NCBI GenBank assembly: GCA_963745595.1
Contig: CAVUYB010000033.1
Coordinates: forward strand, 349 to 64,348
Direction of reading: 5' to 3'
Origin: an uncultured Actinomycetota bacterium
Lineage (GTDB): Bacteria > Actinomycetota > Acidimicrobiia > Acidimicrobiales > RAAP-2
DNA: 64,000 nt
Below, piece after piece: positions 1,359 to 16,081 of the stretch; within the stretch, counting starts at the first letter, position 1, and each line of letters begins with the position of its first letter. A program made the position numbers and the translations under genes. The notes below the pieces were generated by a model. The model had not been told where the DNA came from, searched no databases, and saw only the letters and a list, made by a program, of their open reading frames with translations.

Positions 1359-3825
1359 TTACTCCCTGGTGGGAACGGCCCCGACGATATCGGTCACGTC
1401 AGCCCCAAGGCCCGGCAGTGAACCCACGAAGCCGGCATCGCCGAAGGAGAAGGTGCCCCCGTCGGAGCCGATGAGCCAGTAGCCCGCTGTATCGGCCGTG
1501 GGGACGATACCGATGACTGGACGGGCGGGAGTCACCCCGAGCGCCGGCAGTGTACTGAAGGCCTTGGCATTCCCAAAGGCATAGACGGTGCCGTTTTGGG
1601 TGACGATCCAGTAGCCGGCTCCATTGGGCGTTCCCGCAATGGTCGAGACCGGCGAGAGCGCCCTCGTTGCCGAACCGAGCTGCTGAGCGGCTCCGAAGGC
1701 GTAGACCGTGCCGTTGGCGGCGACGAGCCAGTAACCGTTCCCCGAGGGCGTTGCCGCGATGCCGACGATGTTGCTTACGCTGATGCCGTCGCCAGGTAGC
1801 GAACCGAGGAACGGCGCGTTGCCGAAGGCATAGACACCACCGTCTCGACCCACCATGAAGTACCCGCCGTTTGTTCCGGTGGGCACGATGCCGGTGATGG
1901 GTTGCGCCGGCTTGACCCCGATTCCGGGCAGCGAGCCCAGGAACGGAGCGTTCCCGAAGCTGAACACCCCGCCGTCGGCGCCCACCAAGAAGTACCCCTG
2001 GTTGTCGGAAGTGGGGACCATGCCGGCGATGTCGTTGACGGCGATCCCGAGGCCAGGAAGCGAGCCGTAGTAGCCGCCGGAGCTTCCGGTCGGGAGGACG
2101 AACACGCCACCGTCCGAGCCGACGAGGTCAAAGCCCGAGGCCGGAGGAGTTGGTGCTGGAACCGGCGCTGGGACGGGTGGTGCTGGCACGGGTGGTGCCG
2201 TGACCCGAAGTGACGAGGTAGCAGTCGACGAGGAGAAGTTGTTGCTGCCCCCGTAGCTTGCGGTCACTGTGTCCAGGCCAACCGGGGCCGTCGTGCTGGT
2301 GCACGAGCCCGACCCTGTCGTCAACGTGACCACACATACTGCGGTGCTCCCGATCGAGACGCTGGCGGTACCGGCAGGTGTGCCCACGGATGACGTCACG
2401 GCAACGGCGTAGGTGACCGACGCTCCTTGCGGTGACGGAGGTGGGAGTGGTCGACACCGACGTCGCCGTGGCCGCCGTGCTGACGGTGAAGGTCTGAGGA
2501 CTTCCCGCGGCTGTGCTGTAGTGGGCTCCGGCGGCGACGTGCGCGGCGAGCGAGCACGTTCCGGCGCCGACGTAGGAGACCGTGGCGCCGCTGACGGTGC
2601 AGACTCCGGGCGAGCTGGAGGTCACCGAAGTGGTCCCGTCGCCCGTGGTTGTCACCGTTGCCGCGAAGCTCCCACCGTACGTGGCGTCCGTCGGCAGGTC
2701 GTTGACCGTCGGCGGGCTCGGCGGCAGCCCGACCTTGAAGGACGGTCCTGAGACGAAGGTCAAGTTGCCGAGATTGTCTGTCACCTGGATATGGGTCTGG
2801 TACGTCCCGTTGGCCAGACCGTTCGGCACGGTGCAGACCTCGTGGAAGTAGCCGTCGGTGGCGGTGCCCGAGACCTGGGTGGGCGTTGCGCAGGCGCCAA
2901 AGGGAAGCCCGCTACCGCCGGGGCCAGAGACCGCCACTGCGTTGTACGTCAGTGTGGCCCCATGGGTGACCTGCCACGAGATGGTCGTCGGTTGGCCGGC
3001 TGTCACCGTGCTGGGGGCGACGGACGATGTGACCACCACGGGGGGAGCCACCACGGTGCTGTTCACCACGCTGAAGGACGGTCCTGAGACGAAGGTCAAG
3101 TTGCCGAGATTGTCTGTCACCTGGATATGGGTCTGGTATGTCCCGTTGGCCAGACCGTTCGGCACGGTGCAGACCTCGTGGAAGTAGCCGTCGGTGGCGG
3201 TGCCCGAGACCTGGGTGGGCGTTGCGCAGGCGCCAAAGGGAAGCCCGCTACCGCCGGGGCCAGAGACCGCCACTGCGTTGTACGTCAGTGTGGCCCCATG
3301 GGTGACCTGCCACGAGATGGTCGTCGGTTGGCCGGCTGTCACCGTGCTGGGGGCGACGGACGATGTGACCACCACGGGGGGAGCCACCACGGTGCTGTTC
3401 ACCACGCTGAAGGACGGTCCTGAGACGAAGGTCAAGTTGCCGAGATTGTCTGTCACCTGGATATGGGTCTGGTATGTCCCGTTGGCCAGACCGTTCGGCA
3501 CGGTGCAGACCTCGTGGAAGTAGCCGTCGGTGGCGGTGCCCGAGACCTGGGTGGGCGTTGCGCAGGCGCCAGAGGGAAGCCCGCCACCGCCGGGGCCAGA
3601 GACCGCCACTGCGTTGTACGTCAGTGTGGTCCCATGGGTGACCTGCCACGAGATGGTCGTCGGTTGGCCGGCTGTCACCGTGCTGGGGGCGACGGACGAT
3701 GTGACCACCACGGGGGGAGCCACCGGTGTGGCACCTGCAGAAACGGCCTCGGGGACGGTCATCCCGATGGTCACGAGGACGACCAGGGCTACGACTCTCG
3801 CACGCACTAGTACTCCCTCTGGCAC
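1359..3825 (-). pseudogene. large secreted repeat protein: signal-like N-terminus, 3 x 112-aa tandem domain, Ig-like domains, Pro-rich linker, C-terminal GYW/DGG repeat region. Frame broken near 2430 as assembled.
   Basis: ORF 2128..3825 (hydrophobic N-terminus VVALVVLVTIGMTVPEAVSAGA) and ORF 1359..2399 read as one protein. TPTSVT|QGASVTYAVAVTSSVG joins cleanly if 1 nt is removed near 2430-2433. The C-terminus has 7-8 copies of GYW-V--DGGVF-FG-A-F-GS. Confidence 0.7.
2736..3724. repeat. coding tandem repeat, 336-bp unit, about 2.9 copies, nearly identical
   Basis: The string tgaaggacggtcctgagacgaaggtcaag recurs at 2736, 3072 and 3408 (period 336). Antisense ORFs 2858..3187 and 3194..3523 translate identically. 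Copies 1 and 2 show a single visible difference (tacgtc vs tatgtc). Confidence 0.9.
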
Positions 3826-4557
3826 GCTAAGGCTCGGTGGTTAGTACAGCTAGCGTGGCCGACAGCGTGCCGCGTCGAACATGCCCACGCAAATACCAGC
3901 TCCGGGCCCGGCTGGAGCGAGGGTCCACCGCGCCGCCACTATCGAGAGGCACCATTGGGACATGGCCCTCTTGGACTTTGACCGACCGGACAACATCGTC
4001 GACCCAGGCCCGATCGACGATGTTCTCGGTGATCGAGAAGCCAAGCTGGATCGCTCCCTCAGCCAGAGAGACGATCGCCCGATCTACGAAGCCATTTTCA
4101 TCTACTGACCCGATCCCATCGCGACCTTGCCGTCGCCGTCGCCACTGCGGTCTGATCTTCGTTTCGGCGAGGCGATCTGGCAGGGCGCTGATGAGACCCG
4201 TCGATTCCCTGACAACGCCGCGGTCGGTGCGAGTCACGCACGTTCGATGTGAGCCCCGGCCTTATCGGCGAATCGGTCGATAAATCTGCTCACCGCTTAA
4301 CGAGATCGGATCCAGCGGGAGCGCCTTCGGCAACCCACGGTTCCCGGTCCTCGTGCCAGACATTCGTGACCCCCGTTCACCGATCGTATGGCGGCCTCGA
4401 CCGCCAATGTCTCATCGTTGTACTGCCGCTCCAACAGCGTCCATGACGGGTGAGGCTAGGCGATCATTTCCGATTGGAAACCCCCATTGGCCTTCCTCGT
4501 ATCTCCGACGAGATCGTCGACTCTTACACGCGACCTGTAACTAAGCGAGGAGCGACG

Positions 4558-5785: not shown

Positions 5786-6028
5786 CTATCGGCAGGGTGG
5801 TCGACCGCGCTCGGCCACCGTCACGACGAGTGCGGAATCGCTGTCGGCGACAACGACGACGAAGAGCTGGCGGCCGGCTGGGGTGCGACCGATGACTACT
5901 GTCCGGGTCGGTTCGTCGGCGGACGGGTGTCGATCCTCGGGGTCGGAGAGGACCTCGGCTACTTCAGCGGCGTCGACGGCCCGCTCCCGCATCCGCTCAG
6001 CGGCGTGCTCACTGAACCGGAGCTCCAC
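5786..6028 (-). CDS. DUF4258-like small protein (putative toxin partner)
   Basis: 80 aa. MELRFSEHAAERMRERAVDAAEVAEVL resembles the DUF4258 N-terminus. Paired with the DUF2283-like ORF. Confidence 0.65.
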   Translation of the reverse strand: MELRFSEHAAERMRERAVDAAEVAEVLSDPEDRHPSADEPTRTVVIGRTPAGRQLFVVVVADSDSALVVTVAERGRPPCR

Positions 6029-6114
6029 TCCAGCGGACGGTAGGGGCTGGTTGTGACGAGACGCCGAGCGTTGTCCGCTGGTTCGGGCAACCGGCCGGCT
6101 CGGCGGGTCTTGGA

Positions 6115-8250
6115 TCAGTCGGACGAGACGCCGACGATCGGCGCGACCAGCCGGGCTGGGCCGGTCGAGCCCAAGTAGGCGGCGTCGCCGTAGGCGTAGA
6201 CCGAGCCGCCGGCCCCGGCGATCCAGTAACCGCCACCGTCGGGGGTCGGGCTCAGGCCGACGACCGGCGGCTGGCCGGTGATGCCCTGGCCGGGGACCGA
6301 TCCGAGGTACCCGGCATTGCCGAACGAGAACAGGCCACCGTCGGCCGCGACGAGCCAGTACCCGGTCCCGCTCGGCGTCGGCGCCATGCCGACGATCGGC
6401 TGGTTCAACGGCTTCCCGCCCATCGACCCGTAGAACACGGCGTCGCCGAACGCGAAGATCCCGCCGTCGGCCGCGACGAGCCAGTAGCCCTTGCCGTCCG
6501 CGGTCGGCGCGATGCTCACGATCGGTTGGTTCAGCGGTTTGCCGCCCATCGACCCGTAGAAGGTCGCGTCACCGAACGCGAAGACGCCGCCGTCCGACGC
6601 GACCTGCCAGTAGCCCTTGCCGTCGAGCGTCGGCGCGGCACCGACGATCGGTTTGTTCAGCGGCTTCCCGCCCATCGACCCGTAGAACTGGGCATCCCCG
6701 AAGCTGAAGACGCCGCCGTCGGACGCGACCTCCCAGTAACCGCCGCCGTTCGGGGCAACGGCCAATCCGACGACCGGCTTGTTGAGCGGCTTGCCGCCCA
6801 TCGACCCGTAGAACTGGGCGGTCCCGAACGCGAAGACCCCGCCGTCGCCAGCGGCCAGGAGGACGCCCTGGTTCGATGCGGGTGGCAGGACCATCTGCTC
6901 GATCAGCGACTGCAGGCCGGGGGATGTCCCCTTGGTCGAGGTCACCGCGCTACCGGCCGCCCAGCATGATGCCCCCTTCACACACGAGACCGTGTCGAGG
7001 ATGCTGAGGACGGTCACGTTCGGGCTCGGCTGGATCGACCACGCGGACCCGTTCCAGCTCTCGATGAAGCCCTTCGGCATGAACCCGCCGCCTGTCCCTG
7101 TGCCGCCACCGGCGCCTGTCCCTGTGCCTGTCCCTGTGTGGTGGCCTGTGCCGTTTGTCCCACCTTCGCCCGGGCCCACACTTCCGGACCCGACGGCCCA
7201 GCACCGTGTCGCGGACAGGCACGTGACGTCACCGAGAAGGGCCCCGCCGGCGCCGGCCGGTGGCGCGGTGGCGACGACCGACCACGACGAGCCGTTCCAA
7301 CGCTCCGCCAGCGTGGTCCCGGCCTTGCCCGAGCTGTTCGTCGACGAACCGGCCGCCCAGCAGTCCGTGCCGGTCACGCAGGTGACGCTGCTCAGGTAGC
7401 TGCCACCCGGCGCGGCCGCCTGGTAGCTCGGGACGATCGACCACGTCGACCCGTTCCAGTGCTCGATCAGCCCTTGGTCACCCTGACCGCCGGGGAAGAT
7501 CGGCAGGAATGTCGACTTCTCCTGGTTCGGCCCCGCACTGCCGACGGCCCAGCAGTCGGTGGGGCCGTTGCAGTCGACGGCGACGAGCTCGTCGTAGGCC
7601 TGGCCGGAAGGGGTGGCCGGCTCGATCGACCACGCCGAGCCGTTCCAGTGCTCGACCAACAGGGTCGACTCGTTGCCGCCGGTTGCTGTCGTCGTGTACC
7701 CGACCGCCCAACAGTCCGACGTTGTCACGCACGTCACCCCCTGGAGCAGGGCACCCGACGCCCCGGGCGGGTTCGGGGTCGAGACGATCGACCAGGCCGT
7801 CCCGTTCCAGTGCGCGGCCAACGTCCCGGTCGGTTGGCCGCCCTGGCCGGCCAGCATCGTGCCGACGGCCCAGCAGTCGGCGATGCTGACGCACGTCACG
7901 CCGAAGAACCCGCCGTGGACGGCTGGGTTCGCCGGAACGGCCGACAGCGACCACGTCGCGCCGTTCCACTGCTCGATCAACGGCGTGAACTGCGCATCCG
8001 GGTTTGTGCCGAGTCCTGTCACCGTCGTGCCGACGGTCCAGCATTCGACCGCGTTCGCGCACGTGCTCCCGAGGACGATGTCGTCGGGCTCGCCGCTGCT
8101 CGGGCTCGTGACGATGTTCCAGCCCGACGGGCCCGGTACCGTCGCCGCGGTCGCGGCCTCGGAGGGGGCGACCAACGCGGTCAGCGGTACGAGGACCGCG
8201 CTTGCCGCCAGGGCCAGCCGTCGCCAACCGCTCCGGCGGGCGATCACCAT
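6115..8250 (-). CDS. secreted double-repeat (propeller-like) protein: 7 CWAVG/WNG blades followed by 6 GYW/DGG repeats
   Basis: ORF 6115..8496. Probable start is ATG 8250 (MVIARRSGWRRLALAASAVLVPLTALVAPSEA, a signal peptide). Repeats contain C-WAVG ... (E/Q)xWNGxxWS, then a Gly/Thr-rich spacer, then GYW-VA-DGG-F-FGDA-FYGSMGGKPLN x6. Confidence 0.8.
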   Translation of the reverse strand: MVIARRSGWRRLALAASAVLVPLTALVAPSEAATAATVPGPSGWNIVTSPSSGEPDDIVLGSTCANAVECWTVGTTVTGLGTNPDAQFTPLIEQWNGATWSLSAVPANPAVHGGFFGVTCVSIADCWAVGTMLAGQGGQPTGTLAAHWNGTAWSIVSTPNPPGASGALLQGVTCVTTSDCWAVGYTTTATGGNESTLLVEHWNGSAWSIEPATPSGQAYDELVAVDCNGPTDCWAVGSAGPNQEKSTFLPIFPGGQGDQGLIEHWNGSTWSIVPSYQAAAPGGSYLSSVTCVTGTDCWAAGSSTNSSGKAGTTLAERWNGSSWSVVATAPPAGAGGALLGDVTCLSATRCWAVGSGSVGPGEGGTNGTGHHTGTGTGTGAGGGTGTGGGFMPKGFIESWNGSAWSIQPSPNVTVLSILDTVSCVKGASCWAAGSAVTSTKGTSPGLQSLIEQMVLPPASNQGVLLAAGDGGVFAFGTAQFYGSMGGKPLNKPVVGLAVAPNGGGYWEVASDGGVFSFGDAQFYGSMGGKPLNKPIVGAAPTLDGKGYWQVASDGGVFAFGDATFYGSMGGKPLNQPIVSIAPTADGKGYWLVAADGGIFAFGDAVFYGSMGGKPLNQPIVGMAPTPSGTGYWLVAADGGLFSFGNAGYLGSVPGQGITGQPPVVGLSPTPDGGGYWIAGAGGSVYAYGDAAYLGSTGPARLVAPIVGVSSD

Positions 8251-8494
8251 GCGCCCCCGCCGCGGGTCGCTGCGTTCGTCGGCACGCACCGATGCTCGCG
8301 CCCGGCGACCCCCGTCCGGCGTGGAGAACGGGGTTTTCCAATCCCGGCCGGCTATGGGCAACCGCGTCGCCACCACGCGGAAACCAGACTCCGCGCTTTC
8401 GACGAGGACCGGCCGGCGGAACGCCTCCCGGTCGTCCCCGGCGACCCGCGGCAATGGGGCGGACTTGGCCGATCGACGTCCGTATCCTGGGCCC

Positions 8495-12770: not shown

Positions 12771-13490
12771 GTGGAGGGCTCCTTGCCGGCAACCGTTTTG
12801 CAACTGAACGAGCACCGGCGGCACGTAGGCTCGAGGCGACGCAATGGGGGACTCGGTGACGGGGTGACGGTTCCGATGCCCGGGACGGGGGGACTCGATG
12901 CGGCGCTGGTCGCCGTGGTCGACGGCGCGCGCCGGTTCGTCGAGCAGCTCGGCGCCGCGCCGTGCCTCGTCCTCGCGCTCGCCGGTTCAGAGACCCGGGC
13001 CGCGTTCGACCTGGTCTGGCGGGACGACGTCGAGCGGGACGTCCTCGTCACCGCGCTGACGACGGTGGCCTTGGCGGTCGGGGCCGACGGGTTGGCGGCC
13101 GCGGTCGTCGGCGACGTCCCCGATCGACCGGACGTGGCGCGGCCCGACCACCGCGCCGCCATCGTCGGACTGACGGTCACGGCGGACGGCGTCGTCGCCC
13201 GCCGGCTCGTCCGATTTGCCCCGACCGCCGGCGGCTGGGAGATCGGCGACCCTGAGCCCTACGACAGGGGGCCCGGCGACAGGGGGCCCGGCGACATGGG
13301 GTCCGGGGACGTCGAGCCCGGCGACGTCCGGCTCGGCGGCGACCTCGGCCAGCTCTTCGGGCCCGCCGCCGCCGCCTTCCGGGCCGACGGTGCATACGTC
13401 CCGCTGCCGGCCGAGGTGACCGCCGCCTACGTCAACCTCCGCGAAGCCGGCTGCGTCGTCCGGACCGACGGCCCCCTAACAGCCTCGTGA
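12771..13490 (+). CDS. hypothetical protein with DRGPG-type pentapeptide repeats
   Basis: ORF 12771..13490; ATG 12876 is an alternative start. High GC3. No family recognised. Confidence 0.4.
   Translation: MEGSLPATVLQLNEHRRHVGSRRRNGGLGDGVTVPMPGTGGLDAALVAVVDGARRFVEQLGAAPCLVLALAGSETRAAFDLVWRDDVERDVLVTALTTVALAVGADGLAAAVVGDVPDRPDVARPDHRAAIVGLTVTADGVVARRLVRFAPTAGGWEIGDPEPYDRGPGDRGPGDMGSGDVEPGDVRLGGDLGQLFGPAAAAFRADGAYVPLPAEVTAAYVNLREAGCVVRTDGPLTAS
13263..13337. repeat. in-frame 15-bp tandem repeat (gacagggggcccggc, about 5 units; peptide DRGPG DRGPG DMGSG DVEPG DVRLG)
   Basis: Read directly from the sequence; the first two units are identical. Confidence 0.8.
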
Positions 13491-13536: not shown

Positions 13537-13564
13537 TCAAGTAGGCGGGCCGGCGCGCCGATGA
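13537..13564 (+). promoter_or_regulatory. putative sigma-28 (FliA/WhiG)-type promoter upstream of fliA paralog 1: TCAAG-N15-GCCGATGA
   Basis: TCAA at 13537-13540, 16-nt spacer, GCCGATGA at 13557-13564. Same architecture as six other sites in the window. Confidence 0.55.
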
Positions 13565-13699
13565 CCGTTGAGGAAAACGCGATCACCCTGTCCAGAACTC
13601 CCTCCATCACGCCCGTCACCACCCTTTTTCGCCGCGAGAGAGAACCCCGGAGATGCCCGTGCCCGGCCCGTACCACCCACGTCGAACGGACGGCCGACG

Positions 13700-14581
13700 G
13701 TGCTCGGCCGAGAACGGGCGGCGACCGTCGTGACCGTGGCGGACCGACCGGTCGGGGTCGCGACGCCGGACGACGAGGACGTCGCCGCCCTCTGGCGCTC
13801 GTTCAAGCAGGACGGCAGCACGTCGGCCAGGAGCCGACTGGTGCACCTCTACTATCCGCTCGTCAAGCACGTCGCCCGGAACGTCGCGTCGTCGCTCTCC
13901 CGCCAGGCCGAGCTCGACGATCTCGAGGGCTATGGCGCAGAGGGGTTGATCGACGCCATCGACCGGTTCGACCCGGGCCGGGGTGTCCAGTTCCCGACGT
14001 TCGCCGCCCACCGGATCCGCGGCGCCATCTACGACGGGATCCGTAGCGTCGACTGGGTGCCTCGCAGCGTCCGTCGCAAAGCCCGGGAGCTCCAGGAGGT
14101 CCAGTCGGAGCTCAGCGCCACGTACGGCCGGCAGCCGACCGAAGAAGAAGAAGCGATGGCGCTCGACCTCAAGGTCAGTGCCCTCCGCCACAGCAAGGCC
14201 CAGGTGGCGACGGCGTTCGTCGCGTCACTCGACGCGCCCGCCCATCCCGAGGGTGGCCCGTCGACCGAGCCCGGGGACGGGGCCGACGAACCGCTCACGG
14301 CCTACCTGTCCCGTGAGGCCGGCCACACCGTGCGGGCCGCGATGTGCCGGCTGACCGAGCGTGAACGCACTGTCGCCACCCTCAGCTTCGGCCAGGGGAT
14401 GACGCTGGCCGAGATCGGCAAGACGCTCGGTGTGACCGAGAGCCGGGCCTGCCAGATCCGCAGCAGCGCGCTGAACCGGCTACGGATCTACATGCGGTCG
14501 CAGGGCATGGGCCCCGAAGGCGACTCGGCCGAGGAACGGCTCGTCGCGCCGGTCAGAGAGGTCGTCGACCAGGTCGGTTGA
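13700..14581 (+). CDS. fliA: FliA/WhiG-family flagellar sigma factor (paralog 1)
   Basis: Region 2 (LVHLYYPLVKHVA...LEGYGAEGLIDAIDRFDPGRGVQFPTFAAHRIRGAIYD) and region 4 (ERERTVATLSFGQGMTLAEIGKTLGVTESRACQIRSSALNRLR). Start is uncertain: the track ORF begins at 13568, but GC3 only rises after about 13700 (GTG candidates at 13700, 13730, 13736). Confidence 0.8.
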   Translation: MLGRERAATVVTVADRPVGVATPDDEDVAALWRSFKQDGSTSARSRLVHLYYPLVKHVARNVASSLSRQAELDDLEGYGAEGLIDAIDRFDPGRGVQFPTFAAHRIRGAIYDGIRSVDWVPRSVRRKARELQEVQSELSATYGRQPTEEEEAMALDLKVSALRHSKAQVATAFVASLDAPAHPEGGPSTEPGDGADEPLTAYLSREAGHTVRAAMCRLTERERTVATLSFGQGMTLAEIGKTLGVTESRACQIRSSALNRLRIYMRSQGMGPEGDSAEERLVAPVREVVDQVG

Positions 14582-15168
14582 CCCGGCCGGGTGATCCGGG
14601 CGATCCGTCGCCGGTAGTGATCGACGGCGGCCGGGCCCGGCTCGAGCCAGCGGTCTTCGACGACCGCGGTGAGGGAGCCTTTGCTGGTCGCCCCGGCCGA
14701 CAACGAGTCCCCGACGATGGTGGCCCAGCGCTGGGTGATCGCCCGGTGTACCCACCACTCGGCGTACGCCGAGAACCGGACACCGCGACGCCCGTCGAAA
14801 CGATCGGCCGCGTGGACGAGCGCGGCGTTGCCGGCCTGCACCAGCTCGACGAAGACCTGGGTCGTCGGGACCGGGTAGCGACGGACCTCGGCCATCACGA
14901 GCCGCAGGTTGGCCTCGACGAACGTCCGCCGGGCCCGCTCGCCGTCGTCGGCGACGGCCTCGAGCCGGGCCCGCTCGGCGCCGGTCACTCCGCCGGAACC
15001 AGCCGGTCGGCCTGGACCGGCCAGCTGGCTGGGACCGGCCAGCCGTAGCTGCGCCTCGGCGCCAGCGGCCACCGCCCGGGCCAGCCGTAGCTGGTCCGGA
15101 TAGGAGAGCAGATCGAGCTGTCCGACCTCCTGCTCGTAGTGGTGCAGGCGCTCGTCGCGATCGGGCAT
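14488..15168 (-). CDS. truncated sigma-70-like protein with regions 1.2 and 2 only (no regions 3/4)
   Basis: FVEANLRLVMAEVRRY, ELVQAGNAALVHAADRFDGRRGVRFSAYAEWWVHRAITQ. Its ATG (15166-15168) overlaps the TGA of the upstream fliA paralog (ATGA). Its 3' end overlaps the fliA-1 3' end by 94 nt (convergent). Confidence 0.55.
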   Translation of the reverse strand: MPDRDERLHHYEQEVGQLDLLSYPDQLRLARAVAAGAEAQLRLAGPSQLAGPGRPAGSGGVTGAERARLEAVADDGERARRTFVEANLRLVMAEVRRYPVPTTQVFVELVQAGNAALVHAADRFDGRRGVRFSAYAEWWVHRAITQRWATIVGDSLSAGATSKGSLTAVVEDRWLEPGPAAVDHYRRRIARITRPGQPTWSTTSLTGATSRSSAESPSGPMPCDRM

Positions 15169-15977
15169 CAGGACGCGGGCTCGCCGGCCCGCATGCGATC
15201 GAGCATCGACCGGATGGCGCGGGACCGGATGCGCGAGACCCGGCCCTCGGAGACGCCGAGGACGTCGGCGATCTCGCGCAGCGTCAGCTCGTCGAAGTAG
15301 TACAGCTCGAGCACCTGCCGCTGGCGGTCCGGCAGGTCGGCGATCCCCTCGCGGAGCACTCGGAGCTCCTCGGCCGCCTCGAAGGCGGCGGCCGGGTCGG
15401 TCGAGTGGTCGAGCAGGTGATCGGCTTCGTCCAGCTGGAGCTCGTCGACGGTGCCCCGAGCCACGTGGACCCGCAAGCGCTCGAACGCCTGCCGCGAGAT
15501 GCCCATCTCGGCGACGATCTCGTCCGTGGTCGGCGCGCGCTTGAGCCTGGTTTCGAGCTGAGCCGACGCGGTCGCCAGGGCTCGGGCCCGGGCCCGCACG
15601 GATCGTGGCGCCCAGTCGTCGGAACGGACGGCGTCGAGGATCGCCCCTTTGATGCGGGGGACGGCGAACGTCTCGAACTGGACGCCCCGGTCCGGCTCGA
15701 ACCGGTCGATGGCGTCGACCAGCCCGAAGACTCCCCAGTGGGTCAGTGAGTCGCGCTCGACGTGTCCGGGGAGCAGGGGCAGCATCCGGGCGGCGACGTA
15801 GCGAACGAGCGACAGGTACGCCGCGGTGAGCTCTGCCCGAACATCGCGGTCGCGGCCGTCGAAGAATCGCTGCCAGAGGGCGGCCGTGGTCGTGAGCGGC
15901 TCGGCCACTGGGCCATCGCCCAGGCCGAGGCCGTCCTCACTGCTCTGTGGCCACGCCGACACCGTAGCTGCAGACAT
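15168..15977 (-). CDS. fliA: FliA/WhiG-family flagellar sigma factor (paralog 2)
   Basis: ATG 15977 (residue 51 of ORF 15168..16127) lies 9 nt downstream of AGGAGG. Region 2 (GVFGLVDAIDRFEPDRGVQFETFAVPRIKGAILD) and region 4 (RQRQVLELYYFDELTLREIADVLGVSEGRVSRIRSRAI). Confidence 0.8.
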   Translation of the reverse strand: MSAATVSAWPQSSEDGLGLGDGPVAEPLTTTAALWQRFFDGRDRDVRAELTAAYLSLVRYVAARMLPLLPGHVERDSLTHWGVFGLVDAIDRFEPDRGVQFETFAVPRIKGAILDAVRSDDWAPRSVRARARALATASAQLETRLKRAPTTDEIVAEMGISRQAFERLRVHVARGTVDELQLDEADHLLDHSTDPAAAFEAAEELRVLREGIADLPDRQRQVLELYYFDELTLREIADVLGVSEGRVSRIRSRAIRSMLDRMRAGEPAS

Positions 15978-16053: not shown

Positions 16054-16081
16054 TCAAGATCGCCCGGGCCGGTGCCGATAG
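16054..16081 (+). promoter_or_regulatory. putative sigma-28-type promoter upstream of flbD-motAB-fliL: TCAAG-N15-GCCGATAG
   Basis: TCAA at 16054-16057, 16-nt spacer, GCCGATAG at 16074-16081. Confidence 0.6.

Follow-up and report, generated by a model that had tools for sequence, protein, structure and literature searches.

Sigma factors are usually viewed as all-or-nothing promoter-recognition subunits, and sigma and NusG both bind the beta-prime clamp helices of RNA polymerase. Split and minimal sigmas, including RsoA/SigO, Sig7/Sig8 of Tn916, T4 gp55/gp33 and SPO1 gp33/gp34, are established as gene pairs, extracytoplasmic function (ECF)-like or highly diverged, that jointly supply regions 2 and 4, so that the function of region 2 alone resides on one separate polypeptide (bioRxiv 10.64898/2026.10.01.756105). 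An engineered sigma-70 fragment of residues 1-448, without regions 3 and 4, still binds elongation complexes, with contact between its region 2 and the coiled coil of beta-prime, and causes them to pause at -10-like sequences (PMC3326312). In addition, FlgM, which binds sigma-28, has been reported to be absent from Acidimicrobiia, Nitriliruptoria and Actinomycetia as whole classes (PMC10746217). Here we performed a computational analysis of a gene in a 64,000-nucleotide stretch (the window) of contig CAVUYB010000033.1 from an uncultured Actinomycetota bacterium of the order Acidimicrobiales. This gene, referred to below as the sigma-2-only gene, encodes regions 1.2 to 2.4 of a primary-like sigma and lies between two genes of the FliA/WhiG family, fliA-1 and fliA-2, in a flagellar regulatory module (Table 1). 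A full-text literature search retrieved the split and engineered sigmas described above and no natural, conserved stand-alone domain 2 of primary type, which is not proof of absence. Split sigmas and laboratory fragments being already known, the point for which we found no report is a cell that keeps a primary-like sigma domain 2 as a gene of its own.

The domain content of the sigma-2-only protein was established from several profile and structure comparisons. An earlier note on this DNA, made from the letters alone, had described a 226-residue open reading frame (ORF) with sigma regions 1.2 and 2 and without region 3 or 4; both motifs it quoted were found in the translation, and Pfam, NCBIfam and phmmer agree with its assignment. 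With the profiles of regions 1.2, 2, 3 and 4, which the note had proposed as a check, a strong match was obtained to Sigma70_r2 (PF04542, residues 83-148; E=1.7e-12, score 47.4 bits, cut-off 24) and a weak, sub-threshold one to Sigma70_r1_2 (E=0.046, residues 9-38). No other Pfam family matched the protein at E<=1, region 3 (PF04539), region 4 (PF04545 and PF08281) and the FlgM domain (PF04316) included. The NCBIfam models of SigB, RpoD and cyanobacterial group-1/2 sigmas covered residues ~8-148 (E ~1e-21), with all scores far under the cut-offs of these full-length models, and TIGR02479 (FliA/WhiG) was not among the best 25 of its 39 NCBIfam matches. In the phmmer search against PDB, which returned HrdB and SigA, residues 9-149 aligned to residues 216-343 of Streptomyces HrdB (E=6e-20). 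Because the NCBIfam and phmmer alignments begin at residues ~8-9, region 1.2 is truly present, and L21, L29, G36, A39 and L43 within it are common to canonical sigmas. Regions 2.1-2.4 hold the motif EANLRLV, the core-docking helix VELVQAGNAALVHAADRFD and the segment FSAYAEWWVHRAIT. The AlphaFold model, for which the alignment of the family served as input, contained helices at residues 23-43, 63-95, 103-123 and 132-156 with a predicted local distance difference test score (pLDDT) of 70-87, a weak helix at 179-192, and disorder at 44-62, 156-175 and 193-226. The first of these disordered stretches is a loop with insertions and deletions among relatives (pLDDT <50 at 47-59). The top Foldseek matches of this model were domain 2 of M. 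tuberculosis SigB and SigA, and the closest structures included SigA domain 2 bound to the sigma-interaction domain of RbpA (4x8k).

Judging from these alignments, the protein consists of regions 1.2-2.4 of a primary-like sigma followed by ~75 residues that match nothing, and the gene derives from a primary-like (group 1/2) sigma from which region 1.1 and the whole of regions 3 and 4 have been lost. The word "headless" used in the earlier note is a misnomer, given that the missing parts are the tail (regions 3-4) and region 1.1. The closest described proteins are domain 2 of actinobacterial HrdB, SigA and SigB (PDB 8k60_F, 7pp4_f and 4x8k_A), with 30-46% identity over residues 3-149 (E ~1e-20), the same helical fold and the motifs EANLRLV, VQxGN and FSxYAxWW in common. 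Unlike them, the sigma-2-only protein is without regions 1.1, 3.0, 3.1, 3.2, 4.1 and 4.2, and its gene lies inside a flagellar regulatory module instead of being a housekeeping gene. Its sigma part ends where the engineered sigma-70 fragment 1-448 ends, residue 149 of the window protein corresponding to E. coli residue 444. That laboratory construct, however, keeps region 1.1 and an intact -10-reading surface, whereas the sigma-2-only gene is a natural and conserved one, whose predicted product has changes in the reading surface and, in addition, a C-terminal motif.

The gene belongs to a conserved family. A word-indexed search of 5.8 billion proteins with the sigma-2-only protein returned ten homologous clusters (54-88% identity, 152-242 residues) from Acidimicrobiales metagenome bins, nine of them with 213-242 residues and 96-100% coverage, the other (P0009; 152 residues, 73%) being a fragment. 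The matches that followed were ordinary sigmas of 300-350 residues with 35-46% identity, aligning only to the first 60-75% of the query. Furthermore, a FliA-2-based scan of one genome per species led to a distant locus (L033) in an Acidimicrobiaceae bin, whose FliA-2 is 66% identical to that of the window and whose sigma-2-only homologue has 212 residues and 41% identity to the window protein. A search with this homologue gave five further clusters, which together with L033 make up the six-member subfamily 2, the closer relatives and the window protein being subfamily 1. Thus counted, the family totals ~16 protein clusters in two subfamilies, 41-88% identical and of one architecture, with PF04542 as the sole Pfam annotation in all relatives of both subfamilies (precomputed annotation). 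A profile search of 1.84 billion representatives at 50% identity added nothing further except sequences with a duplicated region 2, and a full-length match was present in none of 200 genomes sampled across the same order. The family is real but narrow, comprising a handful of species, all of them uncultured Acidimicrobiales. As for the duplicated sequences (P0121-P0125, P0127 and P0128), they carry region 2 twice in tandem in near-identical copies and are apparently chimeras of assembly or gene calling; they raise scores in profile searches with region-2 queries.

Gene order was identical in all 12 loci with readable context: a divergent flbD, fliA-2, the coupled sigma-2-only gene and a convergent fliA-1, beyond which the loci extending far enough have a conserved ~200-residue protein with no recognised domain and then, mostly, a LigD-type ligase. 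The earlier note had named a full-length sigma at this position in relatives as evidence against its interpretation; none is present in the 12 loci, and the truncated form occupies it in both subfamilies. Frameshifts and stops were absent from 11 of the 12. The exception is a locus in a long-read metagenome-assembled genome (L031, 4337-5797), in which fliA-1 is disturbed too: through an indel, its frame shifts at RIY|M and the sigma-2-only stop is lost, so that both ORFs continue for hundreds of codons, probably owing to an assembly error. The idea of a recent pseudogene or truncation was ruled out by the architecture and length shared in ~16 clusters and 12 loci and by purifying selection on region 2.

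Selection was evaluated from the ratio of nonsynonymous to synonymous substitution rates (dN/dS), as Nei-Gojobori estimates on codon alignments. For region 2 of subfamily 1 (residues 65-150), dN/dS was 0.15-0.30 in six of eight pairs, with dS up to 0.77, and 0.54 and 1.29 in the two least-diverged pairs. Residues 1-64 gave 0.3-0.6, and regions 1.2-2.4 of subfamily 2 gave 0.29-0.40. The linker (residues 151-176) showed values of 0.6-10, above 1 in five of eight pairs, together with many indels. The results showed that the sigma domain is under purifying selection and that the linker evolves neutrally.

The residues kept and lost within the domain indicate what this selection may protect. In published work, D403, Q406, E407 and N409 are assigned to core binding, Y425, Y430, W433 and W434 to melting, and Q437, T440 and R441 to reading of positions -12/-13 (bioRxiv 10.1101/2020.09.07.285775), and the region 2.2 substitutions L402F, E407K and N409D weaken core contact (PMC3326312). 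Sixteen family members were set against 41 canonical relatives, using those columns in which the canonical set is at least 90% conserved. The region 2.2 helix (VELVQxGN..LV.A.D.FD) is invariant across both subfamilies, including Q406 and N409, and D403 is Glu in every member. Y425 is lost in all members (Val in the window protein), and T429, Q437 and R441 are altered in nearly every one: T429 to Ala, R441 to Gln, Glu, Ala or Ser (Gln in the window protein), and Q437 to Arg in most of subfamily 1, the window protein included, and to Leu or Phe in subfamily 2. Seven of the 16 members have lost W433, with Arg instead in P0011 and Gln, Arg or Gly in all six subfamily-2 proteins. Moreover, subfamily 2 has lost N383, L384 and R385 throughout, EANLRLV having become EAHAPLV, and varies at F427, S428 and Y430; the window protein keeps Y430 and W434. 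These replacements, with Ala or Gln at E407, also distinguish the family from HrdB, SigA and SigB. Family-wide, selection thus guards the fold and the docking helix, not the DNA-reading pocket. The docking helix being best kept and the -10-reading residues decayed, the protein would fit a core binder without promoter recognition.

The expression of the gene appears to be tied to that of fliA-2. The earlier note had proposed translational coupling to fliA-2 through an ATGA junction; the start/stop coupling holds, but the sequence reads TGATG, an overlap of one nucleotide in which the fliA-2 stop and the sigma-2-only start share a single base. This junction is kept in all eight subfamily-1 loci examined, and in subfamily 2 the coupling takes the form of a 4-nucleotide GTGA or ATGA overlap with fliA-2. 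A frameshift fusion to FliA-2 was considered as well and set aside, since the same relative frame in both subfamilies amounts to a 1-in-2 chance and there was no other pointer. The sigma-28-type promoter-like motif TCAAG-N15-GCCGAT, present upstream of fliA-1 and before flbD, was not found upstream of fliA-2, whose leader has on inspection a TACGTT -10-like hexamer. This pattern match suggests a cascade, with a promoter of another type driving the fliA-2 unit. With the motif absent before fliA-2, the sigma-2-only protein would be made with a FliA paralog outside the promoter type of the cluster itself.

Taken together, we consider it possible, with a probability of roughly 40%, that the protein is a mimic of sigma domain 2, which occupies the beta-prime clamp helices without promoter recognition and modulates the binding of sigma or elongation factors when FliA-2 is made. 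We infer the polymerase binding, and with it any regulatory effect. In such a mechanism, the sigma-2-only protein would be co-made with FliA-2 through start/stop-coupled translation, from a unit that appears to be without the sigma-28-type promoter motif of the cluster, and its conserved region 2.2 helix would dock on the clamp helices of RNA polymerase. Having no parts that read the -35 or extended -10 element and no sigma finger, it could not position the enzyme on a promoter. It might then compete with full sigmas and lower the available pool of core enzyme, or it might stay on elongating polymerase in place of NusG; persistence there would be possible because no region 3.2 finger or region 4 is present to clash with nascent RNA. 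The second behaviour is that of the engineered sigma-70 fragment 1-448 (PMC3326312). In both cases, the effect of the sigma-2-only protein would be to adjust transcription when FliA-2 is produced. A more far-reaching version is unlikely in our estimation, namely that a trans-acting sigma domain 2 factor on the clamp helices of core or elongating polymerase sets the timing or level of flagellar transcription in a lineage with two FliA proteins and no FlgM; if true, this would be a cellular transcription regulator of a new class, built from a sigma stump.

Several observations weigh against the mimic. E407, a beta-prime coiled-coil contact, is Ala or Gln in all members, and this together with the Asp-to-Glu change at D403 may reduce core affinity. 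Sigma-28 proteins are likewise without Glu at the E407 position, which offsets this concern. Subfamily 1, including the window protein, retains N383, R385, Y430, W433, W434 and T440, and with most of the pocket residues retained, a DNA-contacting or DNA-reading role of the window protein is possible. Selection on the gene is also clearly laxer than on the adjoining FliA genes, for which dN/dS was 0.05-0.19 (body of fliA-1) and 0.08-0.23 (fliA-2). In addition, a pure competitor would also impede the co-made FliA-2, which leaves the logic of the coupling obscure.

The retained pocket residues bear on another explanation, that of a working minimal sigma resembling T4 gp55, or one half of a split sigma resembling RsoA/SigO and Sig7-Sig8 of Tn916, which would bind the clamp helices through its domain 2, recognise -10-like sequences and open DNA alone or with a partner providing the upstream contact. 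For this, subfamily 1 keeps F419 and F427 in addition to N383, R385, Y430, W433, W434 and T440, and its consistent Q437R change has a counterpart in B. subtilis SigA that alters -12 specificity (bioRxiv 10.1101/2020.09.07.285775). Split and minimal sigmas are moreover established, as noted above, and the short conserved C-terminal predicted helix could be a site for a partner. Against it, subfamily 2 has all of W433, N383, L384, R385, Q437 and R441 replaced and is variable at F427, S428 and Y430, which argues that the -10 pocket is not what selection preserves across the family; no member has kept Y425; and the Pfam matches are limited to the ordinary region 2 and region 1.2 models. A partner was also sought by genome-wide profile searches of the assembly, which is 91% complete. 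Region-4 matches above the Pfam cut-off pair with a region 2 of their own, with two exceptions: one orphan candidate (contig 10, 195718), rejected as a NarL/LuxR response regulator, and a borderline match of 25.5 bits in a 672-residue open frame on contig 21 without a region-2 neighbour. This borderline match aside, no clear region-4-only partner was found adjoining the sigma-2-only gene or elsewhere in the genome. Unlike the known split and minimal sigmas, the protein is plainly derived from a primary-like sigma, and we regard a promoter-reading role as unlikely. Alternatively, the partner may be something other than polymerase: the protein could be a decoy for a binder of primary-sigma domain 2, or a regulator of FliA-1 or FliA-2 that replaces the missing FlgM, making contact, for example, through its own conserved helix near the C-terminus or through the unusual tail of FliA-1. 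The structural match to SigA domain 2 bound to RbpA agrees with a decoy, but RbpA (PF13397) is unmatched in the genome, on which ground a sponge for RbpA was rejected. A regulator of FliA finds agreement in the constant linkage of the sigma-2-only gene to both fliA paralogs and in the conserved additional C-terminal tail of FliA-1. Like FlgM, the protein is encoded among flagellar regulatory genes, is partly disordered and could in principle restrain sigma-28; unlike FlgM, to which it has no sequence relation, it is a sigma domain itself, and we know of no case in which domain 2 of one sigma binds another sigma. The earlier note had remarked on the missing FlgM. Its absence was upheld, no genome match to PF04316 being found at E<=1, but its link to the gene is weakened: whole classes are reported without FlgM (PMC10746217) and the sigma-2-only gene occurs in a handful of species, so the absence alone does not point to this gene. 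A partner of this kind seems to us quite improbable.

It may also be supposed that the gene is a functionless relic of a duplicated sigma gene, its ORF kept open by high G+C, and that the DNA or RNA is what matters, for example through convergent transcription interference between fliA-2 and fliA-1. The whole non-overlapped ORF has a dN/dS of 0.34-0.66, against 0.05-0.23 for the FliA genes, the linker is neutral, canonical functional residues are eroded, the tail is demonstrably a by-product (see below), and the convergent genes leave no room for terminators, none of which was found. These points are countered by region 2, for which most pairs of both subfamilies, at dS 0.2-0.77, have a dN/dS of 0.15-0.4, by the start codon, fliA-2 coupling, length and region 2.2 helix conserved between subfamilies that are 41% identical, and by the 11 undisturbed loci out of 12. 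We consider a relic very unlikely. The mimic of sigma domain 2 stands as our preferred, tentative explanation. What we find is a conserved, selected sigma stump that forms a fixed module of three genes together with two flagellar sigmas, which raises the question of whether sigma stumps can act as natural competitors or elongation-phase factors, as well as questions on how two FliA paralogs are coordinated and how flagellar genes are checked in actinobacterial lineages without FlgM. The reach of this finding is limited by a small family restricted to uncultured Acidimicrobiales, for which anatomy and conservation are solid and the function is deduced.

The C-terminal half of the protein calls for separate consideration. 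After the linker, the motif PxPxAxxxYRxR(I/V) lies outside the antisense overlap with fliA-1, with P177, Y185 and R186 invariant in both subfamilies; it coincides with the weak predicted helix at residues 179-192 (pLDDT 51-64), and SLD follows it in subfamily 2. A likeness by eye to PVSLDxP and SRERVRQIE had made a vestige of region 3.1/3.2 or of the region 4.2 helix conceivable; profile-profile comparison (hhalign) of the C-terminal part with canonical regions 3-4 was not significant (probability 0.3%), and we make no such claim. The final 31 residues of subfamily-1 proteins (QPTWSTTSLTGATSRSSAESPSGPIPCDRM) look highly conserved as well. They are, however, read from the strand opposite to the 3' end of fliA-1, with wobble positions in common, and the 94-nucleotide overlap, already given in the earlier note, is of exactly this length in every subfamily-1 locus with an intact fliA-1 frame (L031 being frameshifted). 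Within the overlap, dN/dS among the more diverged pairs is about equal in both frames (0.23-0.33) and so cannot decide which tail is selected. Subfamily 2 is more informative. There the overlap is 17 nucleotides in L102, 67 in L103 and -13 in L033 (a 13-nucleotide gap), and the sigma-2-only tails differ, while FliA-1 of all three loci still ends with RIYMxxQGxGPEG and ~15 residues. In L033, translation of the strand opposite the FliA-1 tail still yields ...SPAPSGPTPCEAM*, an SPxPSGPxPC-like peptide, in a frame outside the sigma-2-only gene. Because the overlap and the sigma-2-only tail change in subfamily 2 and the FliA-1 tail stays, it is the C-terminal extension of FliA-1 that is conserved. 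Unselected read-through of a stop-poor, high-G+C antisense frame, continuing up to a stop, best explains the sigma-2-only tail, and a functional C-terminal tail is accordingly unsupported. The earlier note had called the exact C-terminus uncertain; the stop is in fact fixed, though it closes a tail best read in this way. The locus thereby shows plainly how a protein tail can look conserved within an antisense overlap when the gene on the opposite strand, and not selection on the tail, is the better explanation.

Table 1. Coordinates of the sigma-2-only gene, its segments and neighbouring features in the window.
Feature	Position	Strand	Basis or remark
Sigma-2-only coding sequence	14488..15168	-	ATG start, 226 residues, stop codon 14488-14490; ORF listing, Pfam, homologues, dN/dS
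Sigma region 1.2, residues 9-43, YEQEVGQLDLLSYPDQLRLARAVAAG...	15040..15144	-	phmmer to HrdB 216-250; Pfam r1_2 E=0.046
Variable Gly/Pro-rich loop between regions 1.2 and 2.1, residues 44-62	14983..15039	-	alignments, pLDDT
Sigma regions 2.1-2.4, residues 63-149	14722..14982	-	Pfam, NCBIfam, phmmer, Foldseek, dN/dS
Unconstrained, disordered linker, residues 150-176	14641..14721	-	dN/dS, indels, pLDDT <50 at 156-175
C-terminal motif PxPxAxxxYRxR(I/V), residues 177-190, predicted helix	14599..14640	-	
94-nucleotide antisense 3'-end overlap of the sigma-2-only gene and fliA-1, third codon positions coinciding	14488..14581		
TGATG junction, fliA-2 stop TGA and sigma-2-only ATG sharing one base (15168)	15166..15170	-	
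fliA-2, 269 residues, FliA/WhiG family, upstream gene of the two-gene unit	15168..15977	-	TIGR02479 E=4.8e-60
fliA-1, FliA/WhiG family, ~283 residues from GTG 13730 (probable start)	13730..14581	+	TIGR02479 E=4e-59
TCAAG-N15-GCCGAT sigma-28-type promoter-like motif upstream of fliA-1	13537..13562	+	pattern match
TCAAG-N15-GCCGAT motif before flbD	16054..16079	+	pattern match

Both FliA neighbours are complete sigmas, each matching TIGR02479 with more than 200 bits and above the curated cut-off of this model. The fliA-2 gene calls in relatives have 269 residues as well. For fliA-1, the longest ORF begins at 13568; the start was placed at GTG 13730, probably the true one, because the gene calls of relatives run to 281-294 residues. 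No terminator-like site was found between the convergent genes, whose transcripts probably overlap. Ordinary sigma-28 proteins end shortly past region 4.2. FliA-1 continues after region 4.2 with a conserved extension of ~27 residues (RIYMxxQGxGPEG...xxAG; window 14491-14581, + strand), present in both subfamilies with or without overlap by the neighbouring gene, L033, L102 and L103 included. Beyond the locus, the genome gave ~35 region-2 matches, a large sigma complement that is mostly ECF-like. Directly upstream of fliA-1 and on the same strand, every long-enough locus encodes the protein of ~190-240 residues already mentioned, without Pfam match (window 12771-13490, + strand; counterparts in L002 at 7693-8277, L003 at 3196-3828 and L033 at 5788-7065), which could belong to the same regulatory module.

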